A program made the position numbers and the translations under genes. Positions 1-10,006 of a DNA stretch of 10,006 nucleotides are shown in pieces. The notes under the pieces are model-generated. The model was not told the DNA's origin. It ran no database searches and was given only the letters and a program-made list of their open reading frames with translations. How positions within the stretch are numbered: position 1 is the stretch's first letter; each line of letters begins with the position of its first letter. This stretch comes from Promethearchaeota archaeon (GTDB lineage: Archaea > Asgardarchaeota > Lokiarchaeia > Sigyniarchaeales > SOKP01): the NCBI GenBank assembly GCA_048938445.1, contig JBHLME010000146.1, positions 1-10,006 of the forward strand, in the 5' to 3' direction.

Positions 1-2
1 AC

Positions 3-671
3 AATAATGAAATTAACCTATTAAAAAAACAAATTAAAGAGCAAGAAAAAAAACTTGAAAATTGGAGTGAAGAATTAGCAAGTTTAAATGAAAATAACGC
101 AAATTTAATGAATAAAATAAAAGAATTAAAAGAAGAATCAGACAAACAAAAAGAAATTATTGAAAATCAAGAAAAAGAAACACAAAACCTAAATCAATCT
201 CTTGAAGAAGCAGTAAAAAAAATTGAAGAATTAGAACAACAAGTTGAAGATAAAAGCGAATTACAAAAAATTGCTGAAAAATCTAATGAACTAACTAAAG
301 AAATTGGAGTAAAAGACAAAGAAATTAATAACCTCAGAGAAAAATTGCAAGAAATGGTAAAAACTAAAGAGGAAATTGATTTAGGGAATAAAGAAATTGA
401 ATCAATGAAGTTAGAAAATGAAAATTTAAGGAACGATTTTATATTTGCAGAAGAAGAAATCGAACGATTAAAGAATGAAAATGAACGTTTCTTAAATACT
501 TTTACAAATTTAAAATTGGAAATAAAACAAACTAAAGAACAACTCGAAAATCAGAACAATAATAATGAAAAATTAAAAGATGAAATCATTGACATGAAAA
601 AAGAAGTTAAAGTTTTAAGAAGGGAACGGGATCATTATAAGAATATAGTTAAAGAAAAAAATCTCCTCTAA
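3..671 (+). CDS. Long coiled-coil protein, 5'-truncated by the window edge
   Basis: The frame of ORF 108..671 stays open back to position 3 (NNEINLLKKQIKEQEKKLENWSEELASLNENNANL-M), so ATG108 is internal. E/K/N/L-rich with heptad periodicity and no Pro; ends LRRERDHYKNIVKEKNLL then TAA at 669-671. Confidence 0.85.
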   Translation, partial: NNEINLLKKQIKEQEKKLENWSEELASLNENNANLMNKIKELKEESDKQKEIIENQEKETQNLNQSLEEAVKKIEELEQQVEDKSELQKIAEKSNELTKEIGVKDKEINNLREKLQEMVKTKEEIDLGNKEIESMKLENENLRNDFIFAEEEIERLKNENERFLNTFTNLKLEIKQTKEQLENQNNNNEKLKDEIIDMKKEVKVLRRERDHYKNIVKEKNLL

Positions 672-843
672 TTTTCATTTTTACATGAAGTTTATTACCT
701 CATTATCAATGATAAAAAAGTAGATAAATTCAATTGATTACCAGTATAATTGTAAAATGTTGTTTTCACATAGATTTTTAAACTTATAGTATATATAATT
801 AATTAATATCATGCAAAAATTATTTCATTAAAATATCAAATAG

Positions 844-1308
844 GTGTTAAAAATAAGTATTGACACTAAAAGTTTCGACAATATACTTTCTAAGATAATT
901 AAGAGCGAAAGCGGAATTAAAAAGGTTATTTTAGTTGATAGAACAGGATTAACTATCGCAAGTGTATCTAAATTCTCTTATTTCCCAGCAGATGTTGATG
1001 GGATTGGTGCAATAGCAAGTGCCGTTTTTTGTGCTAGTGAAGAGCAAGGTAAAAATCTTGAGCTTGGAGATTTAGATATTGTAACGAGCGAGTTTTCTGG
1101 AGGAAAGATATTTGCGGCATCATGTGGGCCAAAAGGTGTTCTTTGTTTGATTTCCGATCCGGACATCAATATTGGTTTAATTAGACTGATTCTTAAACGC
1201 TCTGGAGATGAACTTCGTGAGATTTTAGATGAATTCCTAAGTGAGGTCCCAGAAGCATTGGATAGTGGTTTAGATCTATCCGATTTAGATGAATTAACGC
1301 CAGATTAA
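844..1308 (+). CDS. Roadblock/LC7 (MglB/LAMTOR2-like) domain protein with acidic C-terminal tail; real start may be ATA at 853
   Basis: Roadblock pattern: helix, GIKKVILVDRTGLTIAS beta-hairpin, helix DGIGAIASAVFCASEEQGKNLELG, three strands (LDIVTSEFSGGKIFAASCGPKGVLCLIS), final helix NIGLIRLILKRSGDELREIL. Confidence 0.93.
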   Translation: MLKISIDTKSFDNILSKIIKSESGIKKVILVDRTGLTIASVSKFSYFPADVDGIGAIASAVFCASEEQGKNLELGDLDIVTSEFSGGKIFAASCGPKGVLCLISDPDINIGLIRLILKRSGDELREILDEFLSEVPEALDSGLDLSDLDELTPD

Positions 1309-1411
1309 ACGTAATTTAATTTTTCTCATCTAATTTTTTAACTCGATCATATACTTTTATAAGTAATTTAGGATCATATCCTTTATATTTAGTAGATTTT
1401 TATCATAGCTT

Positions 1412-2569
1412 ATGAATATCATTAACATTTTCATTGAAATAGAACTTAAATTAAAGCAATATAAATTACAATTTTTATTTCTAGCTTTATTTTGGTTTGC
1501 TGGTTTTCTCTACTTTCTCATAACTGAAGTTGAAAAAAATATTTGGACAATATTTCTTTTATCTCTCACTATTCGTAGATCTGCAAATGTAGGAGATTTT
1601 TCAAATTTTTATACCTTAGCATTCCCGATTTTATTAGAAGTAATTGTTTTTGGATTTATTGCTGGAGAATTATTAGAAAAATATAATCCGGTTGTTACAA
1701 GTAAGATTCTCGCTAAACATAGACGAAGGCATTCAGTTATTATTGGTTATAGCCACCTAAGTGAAAGAATTATTGATTATTGCTCTAAAAATAAAAGGTC
1801 TTTTTGTATTATTGAAGATAACCAAGAATTAGTTGAAGATTTAATTAATGCAGGTTATGCAGTTGTGGTTGGTGATCCAACAGAAACTACTAATCTTATT
1901 TTTGCAAGTGTTAAGCGAGCAAAAGAAGTTTTTATAACCGTTAGTGCGGTTAGAATTGCTATAATATGTACTGAGAAGATCCGTGAATTAAATCCGGAGT
2001 GTCCTATATATGTTAGAGTGCATGAAGAACATATCCAGGAATATTTAAGAAATCCACCCTTTAATGCATATCCATTTTCAACATCTAAGTGGACAATGGA
2101 TGATATAGATAATTGGATAAAGGATAAAAAAGGGAATGCAATAGTTATTGGGAGAGACTTATTAACACATCGAATCGCTCATCACATTTCTTTGCAACCT
2201 AAGAGAGAAGTTTATCTCTTTGATGACGAGAATGATGGTATCGAATTTGTAGAAAATGAACAATTACACATAATAAATGAATTTGCTTGTTTTTTGAGTG
2301 ACTTTCGACCTCATGTAGATTTAAACACAGTTTCCCAAGTTTTTATTTGTTGGATTAAAGATTCCGAATTTGATGAAGCACTTTATCTTACATCGAAGTT
2401 CAAATTGCGATTTCCTCAAATAGAGATTTATGTACGAATTTTTGATGAAGAATTAATGGAATTGTTAAAAAATTATAATGCAATAACCTTTTCAACATCT
2501 AGCAGAGCATTTAACCTACTTCAAAACGTTGTTAAAGATAATTCAGCTATATCTCTAAAAAATTGTTAA
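1412..2569 (+). CDS. Channel-like membrane protein: two TM helices plus two tandem TrkA-N/RCK domains (Kch/MthK-like architecture, degenerate pore)
   Basis: Hydrophobic helices at about aa 19-38 and 64-88. RCK1: HSVIIGYSHLSERII...FCIIEDN...VVVGDPTETTNLIFASVKRAKEVFI...IRELNPECPIYVRV. RCK2: NAIVIGRDLLTHRIA...FKLRFPQIEIYVRIFDEE...AITFSTS. Confidence 0.85.
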   Translation: MNIINIFIEIELKLKQYKLQFLFLALFWFAGFLYFLITEVEKNIWTIFLLSLTIRRSANVGDFSNFYTLAFPILLEVIVFGFIAGELLEKYNPVVTSKILAKHRRRHSVIIGYSHLSERIIDYCSKNKRSFCIIEDNQELVEDLINAGYAVVVGDPTETTNLIFASVKRAKEVFITVSAVRIAIICTEKIRELNPECPIYVRVHEEHIQEYLRNPPFNAYPFSTSKWTMDDIDNWIKDKKGNAIVIGRDLLTHRIAHHISLQPKREVYLFDDENDGIEFVENEQLHIINEFACFLSDFRPHVDLNTVSQVFICWIKDSEFDEALYLTSKFKLRFPQIEIYVRIFDEELMELLKNYNAITFSTSSRAFNLLQNVVKDNSAISLKNC

Positions 2570-2630
2570 TTTATAATTTTTTAATATTTTTTTAATAATA
2601 TTTTTATTTTTAATAATAATTATAAAAAAA
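2570..2630. terminator. Pure A/T spacer with several T-tracts (+) and an A-tract (T-tract on -) between convergent genes; probable bidirectional archaeal terminator region
   Basis: ttataattttttaatatttttttaataatatttttatttttaataataattataaaaaaa lies between the stops at 2569 and 2632. Archaeal termination uses U-tracts. Confidence 0.5.
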
Positions 2631-2631
2631 G

Positions 2632-5013
2632 TTATGGGGATAATTGAGCATCACTCGCGTGATATTCTCCTGAACCACTGATTTCATATTTAATTTCCAG
2701 AACCTCCTCCTTTTCTAAGGATTTAATTATCCATTTTAGAGTATCAGTTCCAACCTCATCAGTAATCTCAGTTGGTTCCATTGAAAAGTTTTTATACTTA
2801 AAATTATCAGGAACCTTGTCCAATAAGATAAAATTTCTCAAGGGTATTTCACCAACATTTTGATAAGATAATATGATTTGATAATTACCTTCATTTCCAA
2901 TTGGAATTATTTCTTTTCCTACACGATATTTTCTTCTGATATGAACAACTTTAATAATTGGAATTTTTTCTGGAATTGGGATGAATTCTAATTCTGGTCC
3001 CTTTGGATAGGTATTTGCTGTGTAAATTGCATTCGTTTCAAATTCAGTATCTTTAGATGGGCTTTCAGCGTATATGGGATAAATCAATTTAATAGTCGAA
3101 TTTGGTTCAAACATTCCTGTTTGACTATCCTTTAAATTATTTAAAGTTACCTTGATTTCCTCATTATTAATAATAACTGATTCAGGATCCAAGTCAATCT
3201 CCTTTCCATCCCATAAAAGTTTTAGTTCTTCAGAATTTGGAGGTTTAAATTCATCAGTAAAGTCTTTTTGCGTGAGAGTGACCTCATTCAATGGAGCAGA
3301 ACCATTATTTTCAACAATTAATTGAGCTTCAATTTCGCTTTCCTTATAAGAAGGGATTATAATCACATTTTCTTCCTCCTCAATTCCAATTGGTAATTCT
3401 TTTGCTTCATAAGAAATCGTTCCAGTAATACTTGCTAGTACTAAATCTATATCATCTATAGCAATGATACCGTTTACGTTAGTTTGAAACGTTGGCATTA
3501 CCCTAAATTCTAACTTCTTTTTAAAGGATGGATAATTTTCACTTTCATATTCCCAATGTTCAGAAAGCCATTGTGCCCCTGCAGGAAGTCTAGGGAATTG
3601 ATCTTCAGGAAATGATATAAGATTTTGATCTGGATTAGTAGGATCATTAACATTAACATTAAAGAGTTCTATCATAAACTCAGATAGATTTTGAAATACT
3701 AAATTACAATCCCAGACTCCAGGTTCTTCATCCTTTTCAACCATATCTATGAAATATTTATTATGTGTAAATCCTTCAAATTTCTCAATTGATAATCCCC
3801 CTGAAAAAGAAGAACTCGCTTTATATGTGATATCAATCATTCCGGTTTTTACAGGATCTAAAGACTCAACAAATATATCACACGTGAATTTTAAAATCTG
3901 AGTGGTTTCAGGTTCCAATTCTTCTATTGACCAAATTATTTGATTATTATCAATCTCTGCAGAACCAATTGAACTCGATCTGATATTAACATTATTGAAT
4001 TCAGGTGGAATATTTTTTACCACTTTAACATTAGTTATTGTTTTTTCATATAAACTATGCAAAGCTACTGCAAATGTAATCTCATTTGTTTTTTTAATTG
4101 ATATACCATATGATTCCAAACTAAATTCATCAATATCCATCCCACCTTCTAGCATTTCTTCCTCTGCTTCTCTAATTTTTTCAATAATTTCATCTTTAGT
4201 AGCTTCATCGGGGATATCAATGAGATTATCTTCACAATATTCTTGCAGCTCTTCTAGAGACCATTGTTCGAACTCTTGCTTTTCTTCATCTTCTTCTTGG
4301 AATTCCACATCTTTATCTAAATCTATTAATTCTTCACTTGATTTCTCCTTCTCTTCTCCACTAGTATCATCAAAATCATCTAACTCTTCATCTATTTCTT
4401 CAAGAATTTCTTCTCCAACTTCCTCAATCTCTTCTACTGTTTCTTCAAAAATTTCTTCTTCAACTTCCGCCTTGTCTTCTACCAGCTCTTTAATTTCTTC
4501 CTCTTTAACTCCAATAGTCTCTACTTCCACATCACTAACTTTTTCTTTTAATTTAAATAAATCATTTTTAATGTCAGTAGGATTTAATATCTCATCTGCA
4601 TTGGGATTAGTATTCACGTATTCTTTTATTAAAACAAGATTTTTTATATCACCTGTTAATTGAAATTCTTGAGTATTGCTTTTCTCATCTTCATTAATTC
4701 CTAATTCTCGTATTTTTATTTCATTAGATTTAAGATTAGTACTTTCAATATTTTTAAAAACAATATCAATATCCCATAATCGATCAACTTGACTTGGATT
4801 TTCTATTGAAAGTTTACCATTAAAACCTATGGAATTGATATTACTATAATGATCTTGTTTTACATCAACTTCCTCGATAAGTTCTACTAACACTGATAAT
4901 CCTTCTTTATTACCATCTTTTAATATTACCCCTTGAGGTTGCTTTACTTGAATAGATTCAGCATATTTAGGTTCAAGGTCTATCTGCTTTTCTTCCTTTT
5001 TTTTTCGAGCCAT
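2632..5013 (-). CDS. Large acidic multi-beta-sandwich protein: putative adaptin mu-homology-like N-terminal half, Glu/Asp-rich insert with HeH/SAP-like motif, C-terminal DUF11/TRAP-beta-like Ig domains
   Basis: 793-aa ORF with SD-like TAGGT ending 7 nt before ATG. No signal peptide or TM helix. Repeated Ig-type motifs ([36 protein letters not shown]...[20 protein letters not shown]). The CDS call is secure; the fold calls are by eye. Confidence 0.85.
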   Translation of the reverse strand: [793 protein letters not shown]

Positions 5014-5035
5014 TTTAACTACCTAAATTGGATAT

Positions 5036-5103
5036 TTCGTAATATACGAATTATTAGATTACCTTAATAATTTTATCTAGCCTATTAAATTAGTATTTAT
5101 AAA
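5036..5103 (-). promoter_or_regulatory. Putative promoter of the 793-aa gene: TATA-like TTTATAAA (5096-5103) and palindrome TTCGTA-ATA-TACGAA (5036-5050)
   Basis: The TATA-like octamer is about 80 nt upstream of ATG5013. A perfect 6-3-6 inverted repeat lies between it and the SD. Confidence 0.4.
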
Positions 5104-5113
5104 TTATAAATAG

Positions 5114-5138
5114 AAAAAAAATGGAAGAATTTCCTATT
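5114..5138 (-). terminator. Short hairpin plus T-run downstream of the interrupted membrane-protein gene
   Basis: The minus strand reads aaataGGAAattcTTCCa followed by a T-run (A-tract 5114-5121 on +), immediately after the TAA at 5139-5141. Confidence 0.45.
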
Positions 5139-5980
5139 TTAATGGTCCTCAACGTATATTTTTTTCATCAAATTATTTATAGTGGCATATCTTTACGCAC
5201 CAAGAAATAGTATATTGGTATTAAAAATATAATTAGTCCAATAATCATTCCAATAATCGCATTAGTTGTTAAAGCTAAAAATCCCCAACAAATAAATGAA
5301 GCTATAATCGCTCCACCTAAACCAATTCCAAATATTCCAAATAGTACTAAACCAAGAACTTTTATTTTGCTTTTAGGAGCTATATCTTTAATTAAATCAT
5401 TCTCTTTGTATCCTTTAAATAGCTAATTCAAAGGAAACCAAATCATTGGAGGTAATATAATTATAACCATTACATATAGAGTAATTGCAACGCTACTATA
5501 AGTAAAAGTGATAATATCTACGAATAATCCTGTTTGAAATAGAGCACCAATTTTTTGTGAAGGATCCTAAAAAAATCTTTGAGCGCCAGTTCCATCACAT
5601 CCATAAGCTAAGATGAAAAACATAATGAAATATCCGATGATTGTTTGAAGAAGAGCGAAGTTTAATTTGCCTTTTTTAATTAAATAATAGGTAATATTAT
5701 ATCCTACTATACCCATTAAGATATTTGTAGCTGCCGCAAAGACCGTAACCCACGTTGGTACATCAATACGAGAGGAGAAGATATGCATACTCTCCCGGTG
5801 AGGAAATTCTCAAAGTAAATAGGTTGCTGTTGGAACAAAGAAAATTGCAAAATAAAACACTGTAAATAAGAAATATTTTGATTCATACCATTTTCTCTCA
5901 CCATTTTTAATCTGATTATATGCAGAAAATCCAAACATTGCGCCTATCGCATAAACCCAAAATACATCGACTTGTATCAT
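5139..5980 (-). pseudogene. Multi-pass membrane protein gene (MIQVDVFW... uncharacterised family) interrupted by three in-frame stops and a probable terminal 1-nt deletion
   Basis: Manual translation from ATG5980 stays in one frame for 267 codons: MIQVDVFWVYAIGAMFG...PTATYLL*(TGA 5810-5812)EFPHRESMHIF...YFIMFFILAYGCDGTGAQRFF*(TAG 5567-5569)DPSQKIG...SSVAITLYVMVIIILPPMIWFPLN*(TAG 5423-5425)LFKGYKE...LVLFGIFGIGLGGAIIASFICWG...IPIYYFLVRKDMPL*(TAA 5177-5179). A shifted frame continues NNLMKKIYVEDH* to 5139. ORF-track entries 5810..5992 and 5567..5788 are pieces of this gene. Confidence 0.85.
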
Positions 5981-6022
5981 TTCATAAATCACATTTTATT
6001 AATTTATTACGTTTAAAAATTT

Positions 6023-6072
6023 TCAACGTTTGACAATATTTAAAGGTTAATAGTAATTTACAACTGTAATTT
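6023..6072. promoter_or_regulatory. Divergent promoter region with TATA-like TTTAAA (6039-6044) and operator-like repeats
   Basis: TCAA-cgt-TTGA (6023-6033), TTACA-ac-TGTAA (6058-6069) and direct repeat GTAATTT (6053-6059, 6066-6072) lie in the 135-nt gap between ATG5980(-) and ATG6116(+). Confidence 0.4.
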
Positions 6073-6115
6073 CCATTTTAATATTTAATAGAACTATAAG
6101 GGAGTAGAAATAAAC

Positions 6116-7975
6116 ATGCCAAATGTTAAAGGAGATGGTAAAATCGTAAAAAAAAGATCAGGTTATGGTAAAAATGGACGTGGAGGATATGAGTATGTTC
6201 AAATTTACGTTCCAAGCAAGATCTCTAAAGATTCTTCATTTCCATTTATAGATAAGGAAGAAGTTTCAATAGAGATTCAAAATAATAAATTAATTATAAG
6301 TAAAAAAGACAGATTAATCGATTTAATTAAACAATACAAATTGGATAAGAATTTTTATACTACTCTCCCGAAATTAATTGAAGCAAAAGCAATAGAAAAT
6401 CAAAAAAGGCCTTTTCTAATATTTAAAGACAATATTTATTCATATAAAGAAACAAATGAGAAAGTAAATTCCATTGCTCACGGGATTTTAAAGTTAATTA
6501 AACAAATAAATGTAAAAAAAAATACCCATATTGCTATTATGTTGCCAAATTGCCCTGAATTTATTTTCTGTTGGTTTGCAATCGTGAAAGCAAAATGTAT
6601 ATTCATTCCAGTAAATCGTTTTTTAGAAGGTGACTCCTTAGAATATATCCTGAACCACAGCGATAGTGAAATTTTAATTGTAGACTTCCAATTTCTAAAA
6701 ACATTTAAAATGATAGAAAAAAAATTAATAAAATTGAAAAAAATTGTTGTTTTTAATGCTCCAGATACCTATCGCTTTAATAATAATAAATATATGAATT
6801 TTAGCGAAATAAATACTAATAACATTAAGAATCCCGATCTAAATATCAGAAGTACTAATATAATGGGGATTATTTACACTGAGGGTACGACCGGTCCTCC
6901 TAAGGGGGTTGTATACAAACATCTTCTTGTATTATCGGGACAAATCTTTGGAAAACTACTAAAGCAAGGAATATTTAGAAAAGATGATGATCGAGTTGTA
7001 TATTGTCCAACTCCACTTTTTCAGGCATTTTCTCAAATAGTTATTGTTATTTCATCCATCTTTTTAAATGCAACGATTGTGCTTGCAGAGAGATTTGATG
7101 CAGCTATATTTTGGGATGATGTAAGAAGATATAATGCAGAATTAATCTATTATTATGGTGGAATTATACAAAGTTTAATGGATGAACCCCCAAAGGATAT
7201 TGATAGGTATCATAAAGCCAGATTTGCTTTAGGGGGTCAAGCTCCTAAAGAAATATGGAATTCATTCGAAAATAGATTTAATCTTACTATATTTGAAGGT
7301 TGGGCTGCTACTGAAGCAATTGGTTTTACATGTAATTTTCTAGGTTCAAAGGGAGGAAAAATAGGGTCAATAGGTAAACCTTACTATGCTTGGAAATTAA
7401 AAATAGTAAATAATGAAGGAAAAGAACTGCCACCAGGAGCTAATAATATCGGCGAAATTGTAGCGAAAAAGTCATTTCCTTTAACTTTAGAATATTATAA
7501 AACGCCAGAAAGTACTCCAATGATATTTAAAAAGGATGGCTATATCAGTACAGGAGATCTTGGATATAAAGATAATGATGGTTTCATATATTTTGTAGGT
7601 CGTAAAAATGAAATTATAAAAAAAGCAGGTAAAGAAATATTACCTTTTTTTATTGAAAGTATTGCTAATGCCCATCCAAGTATTTTAGAAAGTGCTGCTT
7701 TTGGAGTACCTTCTGAAAATTATCAAGAAGAGGATATAAAAATTTGTATAGTCTTGAAAAGACAAAAACAATTAAGCTATGAAGAAATTTACGATTACTT
7801 GAATGAACATTTAGCTTATTATATGGTTCCTCGTTATATTGAAATAAAAAAAAGATTACGGAGTTCATCCGAACGAATTAAGAAATATCTTCTGAGAAAT
7901 GAATGGAATAAGGATGAAATAAAGAAAAATACATGGGATTCTAAAATTTCAAATTTGTTAATTTTATCGGTCTGA
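6116..7975 (+). CDS. AbrB/SpoVT-like N-terminal domain fused to a CaiC-like (crotonobetaine/carnitine-CoA ligase-type) AMP-binding enzyme domain
   Basis: ANL-superfamily motifs: IAIMLPNCPEF, IIYTEGTTGPPKGV, PLFQ, ERFDAAIFWDDVRRY, WNSFENRFNL, EGWAATE, GSIGKP, STGDLG, YFVGRK, LAYYMVPRYIE. aa 1-65 carry QIYVPSKISKDSSFPFIDKEEVSIEIQNNKLIISK. SD-like GGGAGT upstream. Confidence 0.9.
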   Translation: MPNVKGDGKIVKKRSGYGKNGRGGYEYVQIYVPSKISKDSSFPFIDKEEVSIEIQNNKLIISKKDRLIDLIKQYKLDKNFYTTLPKLIEAKAIENQKRPFLIFKDNIYSYKETNEKVNSIAHGILKLIKQINVKKNTHIAIMLPNCPEFIFCWFAIVKAKCIFIPVNRFLEGDSLEYILNHSDSEILIVDFQFLKTFKMIEKKLIKLKKIVVFNAPDTYRFNNNKYMNFSEINTNNIKNPDLNIRSTNIMGIIYTEGTTGPPKGVVYKHLLVLSGQIFGKLLKQGIFRKDDDRVVYCPTPLFQAFSQIVIVISSIFLNATIVLAERFDAAIFWDDVRRYNAELIYYYGGIIQSLMDEPPKDIDRYHKARFALGGQAPKEIWNSFENRFNLTIFEGWAATEAIGFTCNFLGSKGGKIGSIGKPYYAWKLKIVNNEGKELPPGANNIGEIVAKKSFPLTLEYYKTPESTPMIFKKDGYISTGDLGYKDNDGFIYFVGRKNEIIKKAGKEILPFFIESIANAHPSILESAAFGVPSENYQEEDIKICIVLKRQKQLSYEEIYDYLNEHLAYYMVPRYIEIKKRLRSSSERIKKYLLRNEWNKDEIKKNTWDSKISNLLILSV

Positions 7976-7979
7976 ATCA

Positions 7980-8954
7980 TTATATTGAAAATATTCCGAG
8001 AAATATTAAGTAGGTCATAAATAATATTGTCTCACCAATAATCGTAAAGATAAGGAATCTTTTTCTCCCTTTTTCTGAATGAATAATGTTTTTATTGAAA
8101 TTTAAAACTAATAATAATACCATAAAACTTACAAACATTAATTGAGCGGGTTCGAATAATTTCAATAAGGCATTAACAACCTTCAAGAATTCACTTACAT
8201 TCGGTTCAACAGAATAATTCCAATTATAAAGAATTTGAAACAACCAATTTGGATATATAAAATAAGGCATAATAAGAATACCAAATGGAACAATATAATA
8301 TAATAACTCTTTTAATTTTATTTTTTTCGAGATTAATAATATAAGGGGGAATATAACAACATAAATTTTATATGTCGCAATCGTAAATAGAATTCCTGCT
8401 AATATTTTTCTATCTTTATCAAGTTGAATATAAGATTCTCCCAATAGAAATAAAATTAACCAATTAGTATTATTATAATACATGTCAACAGCATATCCAA
8501 TGGCACAAAATACTAAAAATAGCACGCATTCTTTCTTATCTTTTGTTATCTCATAAAAACGGTAAGTGATATATATAGTTGAGAATACTCTTAAAATATC
8601 CCAAATAAAATATGAAGGCCATAGCGGTATTAAATAAAAAGGCAAGAAGATAAAATACCAATGATAAAGATAATAATGGCCACATCCATAATCAAATTGA
8701 GGTGAATACATTCCAAAAAATCCCTTAGTCATCCAATCGCGAAGAACTCTAAAATCAACATCCTTTCCATTAAAAAGTTCACGCAAGAGAATATTGGTAA
8801 AATATTCTGAAGGAAATATTGTATCAATTACAGCATATACAACTCTAATTATCATTAAAGATACGGTTATGATAATTATTACAATCAGAAATAATTTATA
8901 AAAAGGTCTCTCATCGTTTATATAATTATCTAAATTTATTTTTTCTAGTCCCAT
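7980..8954 (-). CDS. GT-C fold membrane glycosyltransferase, GT87/DUF2029-like
   Basis: About 9-10 hydrophobic segments. The loop after TM1 has DVDF followed by MY and YYLYHW; later NNTNWLILFLL and AGILFTIATYKIY match the GT87 'G...a...K.yp' motif. Confidence 0.8.
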   Translation of the reverse strand: MGLEKINLDNYINDERPFYKLFLIVIIIITVSLMIIRVVYAVIDTIFPSEYFTNILLRELFNGKDVDFRVLRDWMTKGFFGMYSPQFDYGCGHYYLYHWYFIFLPFYLIPLWPSYFIWDILRVFSTIYITYRFYEITKDKKECVLFLVFCAIGYAVDMYYNNTNWLILFLLGESYIQLDKDRKILAGILFTIATYKIYVVIFPLILLISKKIKLKELLYYIVPFGILIMPYFIYPNWLFQILYNWNYSVEPNVSEFLKVVNALLKLFEPAQLMFVSFMVLLLVLNFNKNIIHSEKGRKRFLIFTIIGETILFMTYLIFLGIFSI

Positions 8955-9078
8955 TTTATTCTCTTACCAATGATGATATAAATTATAAAACAATGTAAAA
9001 TTAAAATTTTAGTTAATAAAATATTTTAAGAGAATTAAAAAAAAATATAGAAAAAATATACTATTGTGTGAAAATATC

Positions 9079-9873
9079 ATGGATCTAGGATTAAATAATA
9101 AGTGTGCTTTAGTTCTCGCATCAAGTAAGGGATTAGGATTTGCTTGTGCTAAAGAATTTTATGAAGAAGGAGCAAATATTGTTATATGCAGCCGTTCTGA
9201 AGACAATTTAAGAAAAGCAGTTAATTCTATTGAAATTAAGGAAAAAAAAAATAGAATTCATTCGATCGTCGCAGATTTAACAGTTGAGGATGATATAAAA
9301 GACCTCATTAATGAAACAATGAAAGAATTTGGAAGGATAGACATCTTAATTCATAATGCTGGAGGCCCTCCATCAGGATCAATTGATTCTATCAATAGTG
9401 ATGATTGGATGAGATCAATTGATTTAAACTTACGTTCTTTAATAAAAATCACGAGATTCGTAATTCCAATCATGAAAAAACAAAAATCAGGGAGAATAAT
9501 CATGATTACATCTGTATCTGTAAAACAACCATTAAAAAACTTAGTACTTTCTAACACTACACGACTTGGAGTTGTTGGATATGCAAAAACCCTTTCCAAT
9601 GAATATGCAAAAAATAATATTTTAGTAAATGTAGTTTGTCCTGGCCCGAATCTTACTGACCGAATGAAGGAATTAATAAAAATTACAGTAAAAAATACAG
9701 GAAAATCTGAAGAAGAAGTAAAAAAATCTTGGACAGATCAAATTCCTCTGGGAAGGTTAGGAAATCCTGAAGAATTGGCTCATCTAGTAGTGTTTCTGGC
9801 ATCTGAGAAAGCCAGCTATATCACGGGAACAGTAATTCAAGTAGATGGTGGTTTTGTTAAAAGCACCTTTTGA
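9079..9873 (+). CDS. Short-chain dehydrogenase/reductase, atypical 3-oxoacyl-ACP-reductase-like subgroup
   Basis: MDLGLNNKCALVLASSKGLG, IDILIHNAGGPPSG, ITSVSVKQP, LSNTTR at the YxxxK position, VNVVCPG, IPLGRLGNPEE, SYITGTVIQVDGG. ATG9079 (typical MDLGL start, GTGA upstream) is preferred over TTG9064. Ends in tandem TGA TGA TGA. Confidence 0.93.
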   Translation: MDLGLNNKCALVLASSKGLGFACAKEFYEEGANIVICSRSEDNLRKAVNSIEIKEKKNRIHSIVADLTVEDDIKDLINETMKEFGRIDILIHNAGGPPSGSIDSINSDDWMRSIDLNLRSLIKITRFVIPIMKKQKSGRIIMITSVSVKQPLKNLVLSNTTRLGVVGYAKTLSNEYAKNNILVNVVCPGPNLTDRMKELIKITVKNTGKSEEEVKKSWTDQIPLGRLGNPEELAHLVVFLASEKASYITGTVIQVDGGFVKSTF

Positions 9874-10006
9874 TGATGAAAAATTCATGAAATAATATGA
9901 TTTTCATATATATTTTTAAATTAAGAGCTAATATTTATTTTTAAACCATAGTGAAGTTTATATTTGCGAAATTCCCATATTATTACTTACTATAAGAAAA
10001 AAAATT

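Follow-up and report, generated by a model that had tools for sequence, protein, structure and literature searches.

A predicted mu homology domain fold, divided by an acidic insert, in a probably cytoplasmic protein of a Lokiarchaeial genome

We analysed a stretch of archaeal DNA, positions 1 to 10,006 of the forward strand of contig JBHLME010000146.1 (Promethearchaeota archaeon; Lokiarchaeia; SOKP01; assembly GCA_048938445.1), which we call the window. It is AT-rich, with a G+C content of 24-32%, holds seven long open reading frames (ORFs) and gives no Rfam match. Our subject is the gene on its minus strand that encodes a protein of 793 amino acids (aa), here called P0001. A preliminary description of this DNA, made from the sequence alone, had pointed out four segments of P0001 which, in the same order, resemble parts of AP-2 mu2, and had read them as the mu homology domain (MHD) of an adaptor- or coat-like protein with additional immunoglobulin (Ig)-like domains. 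The MHD is a characteristic domain of eukaryotic vesicle-coat adaptors. The features of the gene are given below; model confidence is the predicted local distance difference test (pLDDT), and VIA is one of the two programs with which folds were compared.

2632..5013, minus strand: the whole gene; 793 aa and a TAA stop, soluble product
4909..5013, minus strand: N-terminus, aa 1-35; short, basic and disordered, no Pfam match
4597..4908, minus strand: N-terminal strands of predicted MHD subdomain A, aa 36-139, holding the first and second of the segments described earlier; six strands, pLDDT 85-98; VIA alignments to mu2 begin at aa ~36
4114..4596, minus strand: acidic insert, aa 140-300; mostly disordered, 44% Asp+Glu, located where subdomains A and B join
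4150..4287, minus strand: HeH/SAP-like three-helix module, aa 243-288, within the insert; pLDDT 92-95
3766..4113, minus strand: predicted MHD subdomain B, aa 301-416; also a DUF11-type Ig repeat, holding the third and fourth of the segments described earlier
3445..3765, minus strand: C-terminal part of the predicted MHD, aa 417-523; its last strand closes subdomain A, and VIA ranges end at aa ~521
2938..3444, minus strand: CnaB/pilin-like beta-sandwich, aa 524-692; fold matches for aa 526-691
2635..2937, minus strand: C-terminal DUF11-type Ig domain, aa 693-793, with a conserved C-terminal tail

P0001 is strongly acidic, with an isoelectric point (pI) of 4.25. A hydropathy scan and the charged N-terminus gave no transmembrane segment or signal peptide: the 19-residue maximum is 1.52, lies within a beta-strand, and the profile is nowhere like that of a membrane segment. 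The N-terminal piece has a pI of 9.2 and a mean hydropathy of -1.13, and aa 1-20 have a pLDDT of 34-35. Because of this charged N-terminus and the lack of membrane-like hydropathy we take P0001 to be cytoplasmic, which agrees with the earlier statement that its Ig-like domains lie inside the cell.

The sole Pfam family above its cut-off in P0001 is DUF11 (PF01345; aa 307-388, 35.8 bits, E = 1.1e-8), and a scan with NCBIfam added nothing to the Pfam result. DUF11 and the CnaB/pilin-like fold matches of the middle domain are what one would see if P0001 were a secreted or surface protein of the adhesin type, like most DUF11 and pilin-like Ig proteins. We regard this as extremely improbable, given the N-terminus and the hydropathy described above; moreover, a long polyacidic linker and a HeH module are typical of intracellular proteins. 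The DUF11 repeats of archaeal and bacterial surface proteins are mostly secreted and stand in tandem, whereas P0001 is cytoplasmic and the one repeat that reaches the cut-off, in subdomain B, would be built into its MHD.

The full-length AlphaFold2 model, computed from a 74-row alignment, has a mean pLDDT of 81.4 and is low only at aa 1-22, 169-243 and 290-296. Used as a Foldseek query, this model matched nothing but generic tandem-Ig proteins (PrgB, integrins, antigen I/II), all with TM-scores below 0.3, and a model of the domain alone was needed. Residues 24-525, modelled by themselves from a 111-row alignment, reached a pLDDT of 88.2 and a predicted TM-score (pTM) of 0.76. With this model Foldseek gave 43 rows, 36 of them AP mu chains and the remaining seven integrin alpha-V; the best AP mu match had E = 4.4e-8, and the TM-score by target was up to 0.74. 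In VIA, MHDs occupy all ten top ranks and lie about 3 Z units above any other fold, with an identity to the mu chains of 11-14%. The VIA values are listed here, with the aligned residues in the middle of each row.

mu2: 18.2; 226 of 252 aligned; 3.3
mu4: 17.4; 210 of 245 aligned; 2.8
mu3A: 17.2; 218 of 249 aligned; 3.2
delta-COP, bovine and yeast: 16.4 and 14.7; 213 of 242 and 215 of 263 aligned; 3.1 and 3.1
mu1: 16.2; 204 of 388 aligned; 2.6
SGIP1: 15.3; 216 of 267 aligned; 3.5
Syp1: 13.6; 215 of 262 aligned; 4.0

The predicted model thus has two sandwich subdomains, B inserted in A, which match solved MHDs as a rigid body, and ~226 of its roughly 316 ordered residues match mu2. This two-subdomain topology is what the preliminary description had proposed to look for; on the modelled structure the outcome of both programs is clean and well separated from generic Ig folds.

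The MHD alignments span aa ~36 to ~521 in three parts, namely aa 36-139, 301-416 and 417-523. The domain had earlier been placed at 3769-4902, which corresponds to aa 38-415; the start region of this span holds, but its end does not, as the MHD continues to aa ~521 (about position 3451 of the window). The stretch of aa ~140-300 that was to be deleted before any profile comparison is a genuine insert, with a low pLDDT in all but the three-helix module. An acidic linker is found at this position in 74/74 close relatives, and its length varies from 29 to 196 aa. Apart from the closing strand, aa 417-523 form, together with strand 127-134, an extra beta-sandwich that has no counterpart in mu2; we infer it because pilin/MG-type matches to a single domain extend over aa 123-525 but contain 113-138 residues.

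We also looked for kinship with mu subunits at the level of sequence. Two alignments and their profiles were used, A1 with 74 close relatives (P0001 included) and A2 with 68 diverse, unselected family members. The Pfam gathering scores that apply are 31.6 bits for PF00928 (Adap_comp_sub), 24.6 for DUF11, 27.6 for Alpha_adaptinC2, 26.6 for Ish1 and 24.9 for Rho_N. A word-index search found 291 relatives, and among the 120 listed, 34 have a precomputed label for PF00928; an exhaustive search gave 330 clusters at 50% identity, with a conserved core at aa ~300-792. PF00928 matches 29/68 A2 members at E <= 0.001 (best 1.9e-10). Twelve relatives were scanned against Pfam, ten of them chosen because they carry the PF00928 label; these ten all match PF00928 (E between 1e-5 and 2e-8; profile positions ~122-242) on the same residues as DUF11, and the gathering score is reached by two of the twelve (P0045, 31.8 bits; P0105, 34.5 bits). 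The matches in relatives are confined to profile positions ~113-242 of 259, in the region equivalent to subdomain B of P0001, which HMMER also aligns to mu2 and mu3.

When the A2 profile was compared with 177,635 PDB sequences, nine of the 12 matches at E <= 10 were mu subunits: three AP-3 mu chains (E = 0.0017-0.0057) and six AP-2 mu chains (E = 0.28-0.9). The gamma-adaptin ear was matched as well (E = 0.065). The likeness of P0001 to mu subunits exceeds chance. The four segments on which the first suggestion of this likeness was based, an alignment to mu2 by eye, are all present, at aa 41-70, 115-133, 311-366 and 391-413, and fare differently. For the third and fourth, HMMER pairs the same residues: the Trp of '..IIWSIEEL' with the strand Trp of mu2/mu3, and 'SGGLSIEKF' with 'SGLKV' of mu. 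The first is paired in the same manner too, but that stretch scores only 1.4 bits. The second, also collinear, is located on the two strands immediately preceding the insert, its residue pairing falling outside the HMMER alignments.

Could the resemblance be that of a look-alike, i.e. a cytoplasmic string of DUF11/CARDB-type Ig domains whose MHD-like packing is convergent or a product of the modelling, with no common descent? DUF11 is, after all, the only family above the cut-off in P0001 and matches 61/68 A2 members against 29/68 for PF00928, and the identity to mu chains is only 11-14%. In hhalign comparisons of A2 segments, subdomain B pairs with the last domain at 97.7% and with the middle domain at 91.2%, the middle and last domains pair at 95.3%, and the N-terminal piece is related to none of the three. 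Because of these relations we consider subdomain B a DUF11-type repeat akin to the C-terminal Ig domains; such a descent is, however, compatible with homology to the eukaryotic MHD. Beyond the family, the structural neighbours in the Atlas are CARDB/DUF11 proteins of bacteria, but their TM-scores are only 0.28-0.31. Atlas relatives labelled Thermoplasmatota reach 0.64-0.66 across 574 residues, in keeping with a family that may extend beyond the Asgard archaea, and SAP occurs in 23% of the members of one cluster. On the other hand, the top VIA ranks all go to MHDs, which align over 204-226 residues and stand ~3 Z units clear of other folds, independent Ig beads would not be expected to match both subdomains rigidly, and the PF00928 and PDB mu matches come from sequence alone. 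We therefore hold a look-alike to be unlikely.

How does P0001 compare with the known MHD proteins? Unlike the mu subunits of AP-1 to AP-4 and delta-COP (9fiw_M, 4mdr_A, 4ikn_A, 1w63_M, 4o8q_B), it has no longin domain: Clat_adaptor_s (PF01217) does not match P0001 at E <= 1, and just 35 disordered residues precede the MHD. For this reason we see in P0001 a stand-alone MHD protein and not a mu subunit. It adds to the mu and delta-COP plan the acidic HeH insert of 160 aa at the A/B junction, a sandwich of ~90 residues and two further Ig domains. Proteins of the muniscin/stonin type (SGIP1, 5awr_A; Syp1, 3g9h_A) are likewise stand-alone MHD proteins, but their MHD stands at the C-terminus, behind F-BAR or other membrane-binding modules, whereas the MHD of P0001 is N-terminal and is followed by Ig domains. 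We did not identify a membrane-binding module in P0001.

The 51 invariant columns of A1 are unevenly spread: the last domain has 19, aa 417-523 have 14 and the middle domain has 11, whereas six are in subdomain B, one is in the insert and none is in aa 36-139. Since they concentrate in the extra sandwich and the last domain, these two regions may be functional sites. The last domain carries the invariant basic motif R693 R694 R697 K700, and in relatives it also reaches the DUF11 cut-off. Its similarity to Alpha_adaptinC2 (PF02883; aa 707-751) is weak and below the gathering score, and the gamma-adaptin ear is found among the A2 matches in the PDB.

The genome of P0001 (4.63 Mb in 256 contigs, 96.5% complete, 8.2% contaminated) encodes at least three further full-length relatives and a fragment. 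The closest paralogue, on contig C23 (L088:8071-10233), has 721 aa, is 53% identical and matches PF00928 with E = 3.9e-6. The gene after it, on the same strand, encodes a 548-aa FG-GAP propeller (L088:10371-12014; Beta-prop_BBS7, E = 1.6e-17, with BBS2_Mid and Itfg2). We sampled the loci of the best 80 of 284 relatives found with an alignment query in one-per-species genomes, nearly all of them titled Promethearchaeota. In 68/80 loci, a gene of the propeller cluster stands directly after the MHD gene on the same strand. In 61 loci, the pair is closely followed by a convergent gene whose product, of 149-156 aa, belongs to no Pfam family, and the C-terminal ~200 aa of the propeller protein resemble, by eye, winged-helix domains. 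The MHD/propeller module has diversified (L017, L085): some relatives have two MHD-family genes in tandem (L017:3894-6992 and 7800-9905, for 1033 and 701 aa), or longer propeller-cluster proteins, of 770 and 656 aa without Pfam matches and of 921 aa with propeller matches. The contig L038, titled 'Candidatus Nanopelagicaceae bacterium', bears MHD and propeller-cluster genes of the Asgard type and is probably mis-binned. As to domain fusions, 18 long family members show one NACHT and otherwise only coiled coils.

The gene in the window is a separate paralogue without a propeller neighbour. Its nearest relatives are 65-66% (L009/L121) and 50-57% (L010/L125) identical. L121 has the upstream genes in common with the window (GT87, acyl-CoA ligase and a 283-aa membrane protein), L125 the downstream TrkA_N, Roadblock and coiled-coil genes and the SDR on the upstream side; HeH-bearing relatives of two other genera have different neighbours. 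P0001 is a genus-limited paralogue that carries the HeH insert. An operon partner was considered and dropped: the downstream trio recurs only in one species of the genus (L125) and the upstream GT87/ligase/c47 genes only in another (L121), and because the neighbours are not conserved beyond the genus we infer none. Residues 522-793 of P0001, co-folded with the C23 propeller, scored 0.00 in two runs that had no folded controls, which bears neither way on binding.

These data also bear on whether P0001 is a working coat adaptor, a subunit of the AP, COPI or TSET kind that selects membrane cargo with its MHD and uses the Ig domains as appendage hubs. The MHD fold, the faint likeness of the last domain to Alpha_adaptinC2 and the gamma-ear, and the BBS7/ITFG2-type propeller next to the main paralogue, in its own genome as well, would fit such a role, and Eme et al. 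(PMC10307638) report other AP domains elsewhere in Asgard genomes; by their account, however, the Asgard mu C-terminal domain and the other AP domains are sparsely distributed and unfused to one another. P0001 itself lacks the longin domain, the propeller neighbour and any neighbour conserved beyond the genus, and in it no membrane-binding element was identified. In the window and the orthologous loci, we found no gene for an adaptin large subunit or a sigma/zeta small subunit; the whole genome was not searched for them. We take the YxxPhi pocket to lie between the first and last MHD strands, with an Asp that binds the Tyr in mu2. In P0001 such a pocket is not evident, judging from one weak 1.4-bit alignment in which the tyrosine position is not conserved. 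A coat adaptor thus seems very unlikely to us; while the MHD reading of the preliminary description stands, its labels 'adaptor or coat' and 'appendage-like' are unproven.

The insert holds a distinctive element of P0001. The Ish1 profile, which matches at aa 248-282, scores 20.4 bits for the complete protein and 25.6 bits (E = 1.6e-5) for a 50-aa piece around the module; this piece also matches SAP_new25 and Rho_N, and the relative P0006 passes the Rho_N cut-off (27.0 vs 24.9). Like HeH/SAP/LEM-type motifs (Rho_N, HeH, SAP, Ish1), the module has 35-40 aa and two to three helices, and four such families gave matches, but it differs in being embedded in a polyacidic linker inside another domain. 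It is present in 12/74 A1 rows (P0001 included), and 11 of these 12 fall in a 24-row clade with 98% support. A single clade of HeH-bearing forms was rejected, since the tree (insert excluded, quick search) needs at least six gains or losses; the positions of P0010 and P0056, which are flagged as long branches, are uncertain.

The module is not restricted to MHD proteins. With the 50-aa piece as a query, 105/154 genomes of the order were matched, 104/134 in the family and 0/19 in three other families, and most of the matches lie in proteins other than the MHD family. Frames of MHD length with the module occur only in G000, G024, G025, G026, G037 and G039, and for G024, G025, G037 and G039 an MHD protein was confirmed when the locus was fetched; a 773-aa frame with the module in G084 is not an MHD relative. 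In the archaeal family the module is a mobile piece (L128:2523-5912 of a related genome; L104; L106; L127:1571-2731 and L126:1440-5699 of the genome of P0001; L120). Gelsolin-like proteins, one of them in the genome of P0001, and an Ig protein of 1420 aa carry it at the C-terminus, a 334-aa protein carries it at the N-terminus, with Ish1 at 31.2 bits and above its cut-off, and in a related genome it is embedded in a Topo VI-B-like protein of 1130 aa.

Taken together, we favour, with a probability of about 0.78, the reading that P0001 is a cytoplasmic acidic beta-sandwich chain of the Asgard 'Adap_comp_sub' family, with a complete MHD and a role as a partner-binding scaffold. Residues ~36-521 would form the complete MHD, homologous to the cargo- or partner-binding domain of AP mu, delta-COP and the muniscins, and the acidic linker of 160 aa would split it precisely where subdomain B is inserted into A. 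The layout would be muniscin- or stonin-like, the MHD being followed by two DUF11-type Ig domains, and not that of a mu-subunit orthologue. What the analysis shows is the gene with its domain anatomy, the match in fold, the link of the family to PF00928 by sequence profile, the paralogy and the lack of transmembrane segments, whereas the scaffold role is proposed. Such a scaffold may use its MHD to bind partner proteins or short motifs, and possibly also the extra sandwich (aa 417-523) and the C-terminal Ig domain with its invariant basic patch, while the HeH module might tether this paralogue to a second ligand, possibly a nucleic acid.

Several observations weigh against this reading. PF00928 does not match P0001 itself at E <= 1, and the A1 profile found no mu chain among the PDB sequences at E <= 10. 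The fold evidence consists of predicted structures, compared without a residue-level superposition. The 1.4-bit alignment of strand 1 puts Glu44, which is Lys in most relatives, at the presumed Tyr-binding Asp. The HeH-type matches of P0001 fall just below the Pfam cut-offs, and the polyacidic surroundings of the module would be expected to oppose the binding of nucleic acids. Finally, no conserved neighbour in the orthologous loci indicates a partner.

A different idea about function is that Asgard MHD scaffolds, or at least the HeH paralogue, act on the nucleoid or the cytoskeleton instead of membranes. It is suggested by the attachment of the same module to Topo VI-B-like and gelsolin-like proteins in the archaeal family, and we consider it doubtful. 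If it were true, the ancestor of the cargo-binding MHD of eukaryotes would be a DUF11-type Ig scaffold that at first served non-membrane tethering.

Some observations concern the neighbours of the gene in the window. The Roadblock/LC7 (MglB-like) gene at 844-1308 on the plus strand encodes 154 aa that are 98% identical to the counterpart in another species of the genus, where the flanking genes are far less identical (coiled coil 43%, MHD protein 57%, TrkA_N 65%, SDR 69%); to judge by these values it is under unusually strong constraint. A coiled-coil protein (3-671, plus strand), whose counterpart in L125 has 395 aa, is cut at the window start and gives only generic coiled-coil and SMC/Rad50-like matches. 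Upstream of the MHD gene, a gap of 1.1 kb contains a pseudogene (5180-5992, minus strand) of the 283-aa multi-pass membrane protein, for which Pfam has no family. Its alignment with the gene of a related species, which is intact there, is gapless, at 75% aa identity across 271 aa, and three Trp codons of the relative are in-frame stops here: TGA at 5810-5812, TAG at 5567-5569 and TAG at 5423-5425. The stops at 5810-5812 and 5423-5425 are unchanged in contigs from other sequencing runs, and a variant ~90% alike reads TGG at 5810-5812; the stops look like G-to-A nonsense mutations. We rejected a recoding of the three, since both TGA and TAG are involved and TGA terminates two good genes of the window.

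It had been left open whether this family is among the adaptor-like domains reported from Asgard archaea. It is: Eme et al. 2023 (Nature 618:992, PMC10307638) list it under 'Adap_comp_sub' among candidate eukaryotic signature proteins, and the PF00928 label occurs 44 times in their Supplementary Table 3. One row of the table, Lokiarchaeales_Bin_204_WJIS01000289..._3_#_3904_#_6174, is L047:3904-6174, a gene whose product shares 52% identity with P0001 (aa 28-792, E = 7e-178), and in the row Lokiarchaeales_AMARA_7 an acidic HeH-bearing insert is visible by eye; some other rows are plainly unrelated helical proteins. P0001 belongs to the same family as these candidates but comes from a different genome and species. 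In the passages of Eme et al. used here, which do not extend to the Supplementary Information text, neither a fold test nor the insert, the extra sandwich or the paralogy is described; our literature search found no paper that describes the fold, insert or propeller pairing of this family, and two later structure-based surveys, in the parts used, touch adaptor proteins only in passing.

As the family is already in print, the window does not hold a new kind of protein. P0001 is a further member, and what distinguishes it is the HeH-bearing acidic insert and the separate genomic context. MHDs in Asgard archaea bear on the origin of membrane trafficking, and the kinship of subdomain B with the C-terminal Ig domains suggests how an MHD could have been built. 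The HeH insert, in turn, offers an experimentally easy handle, by way of DNA, RNA or partner binding, on the role of these candidate scaffolds.

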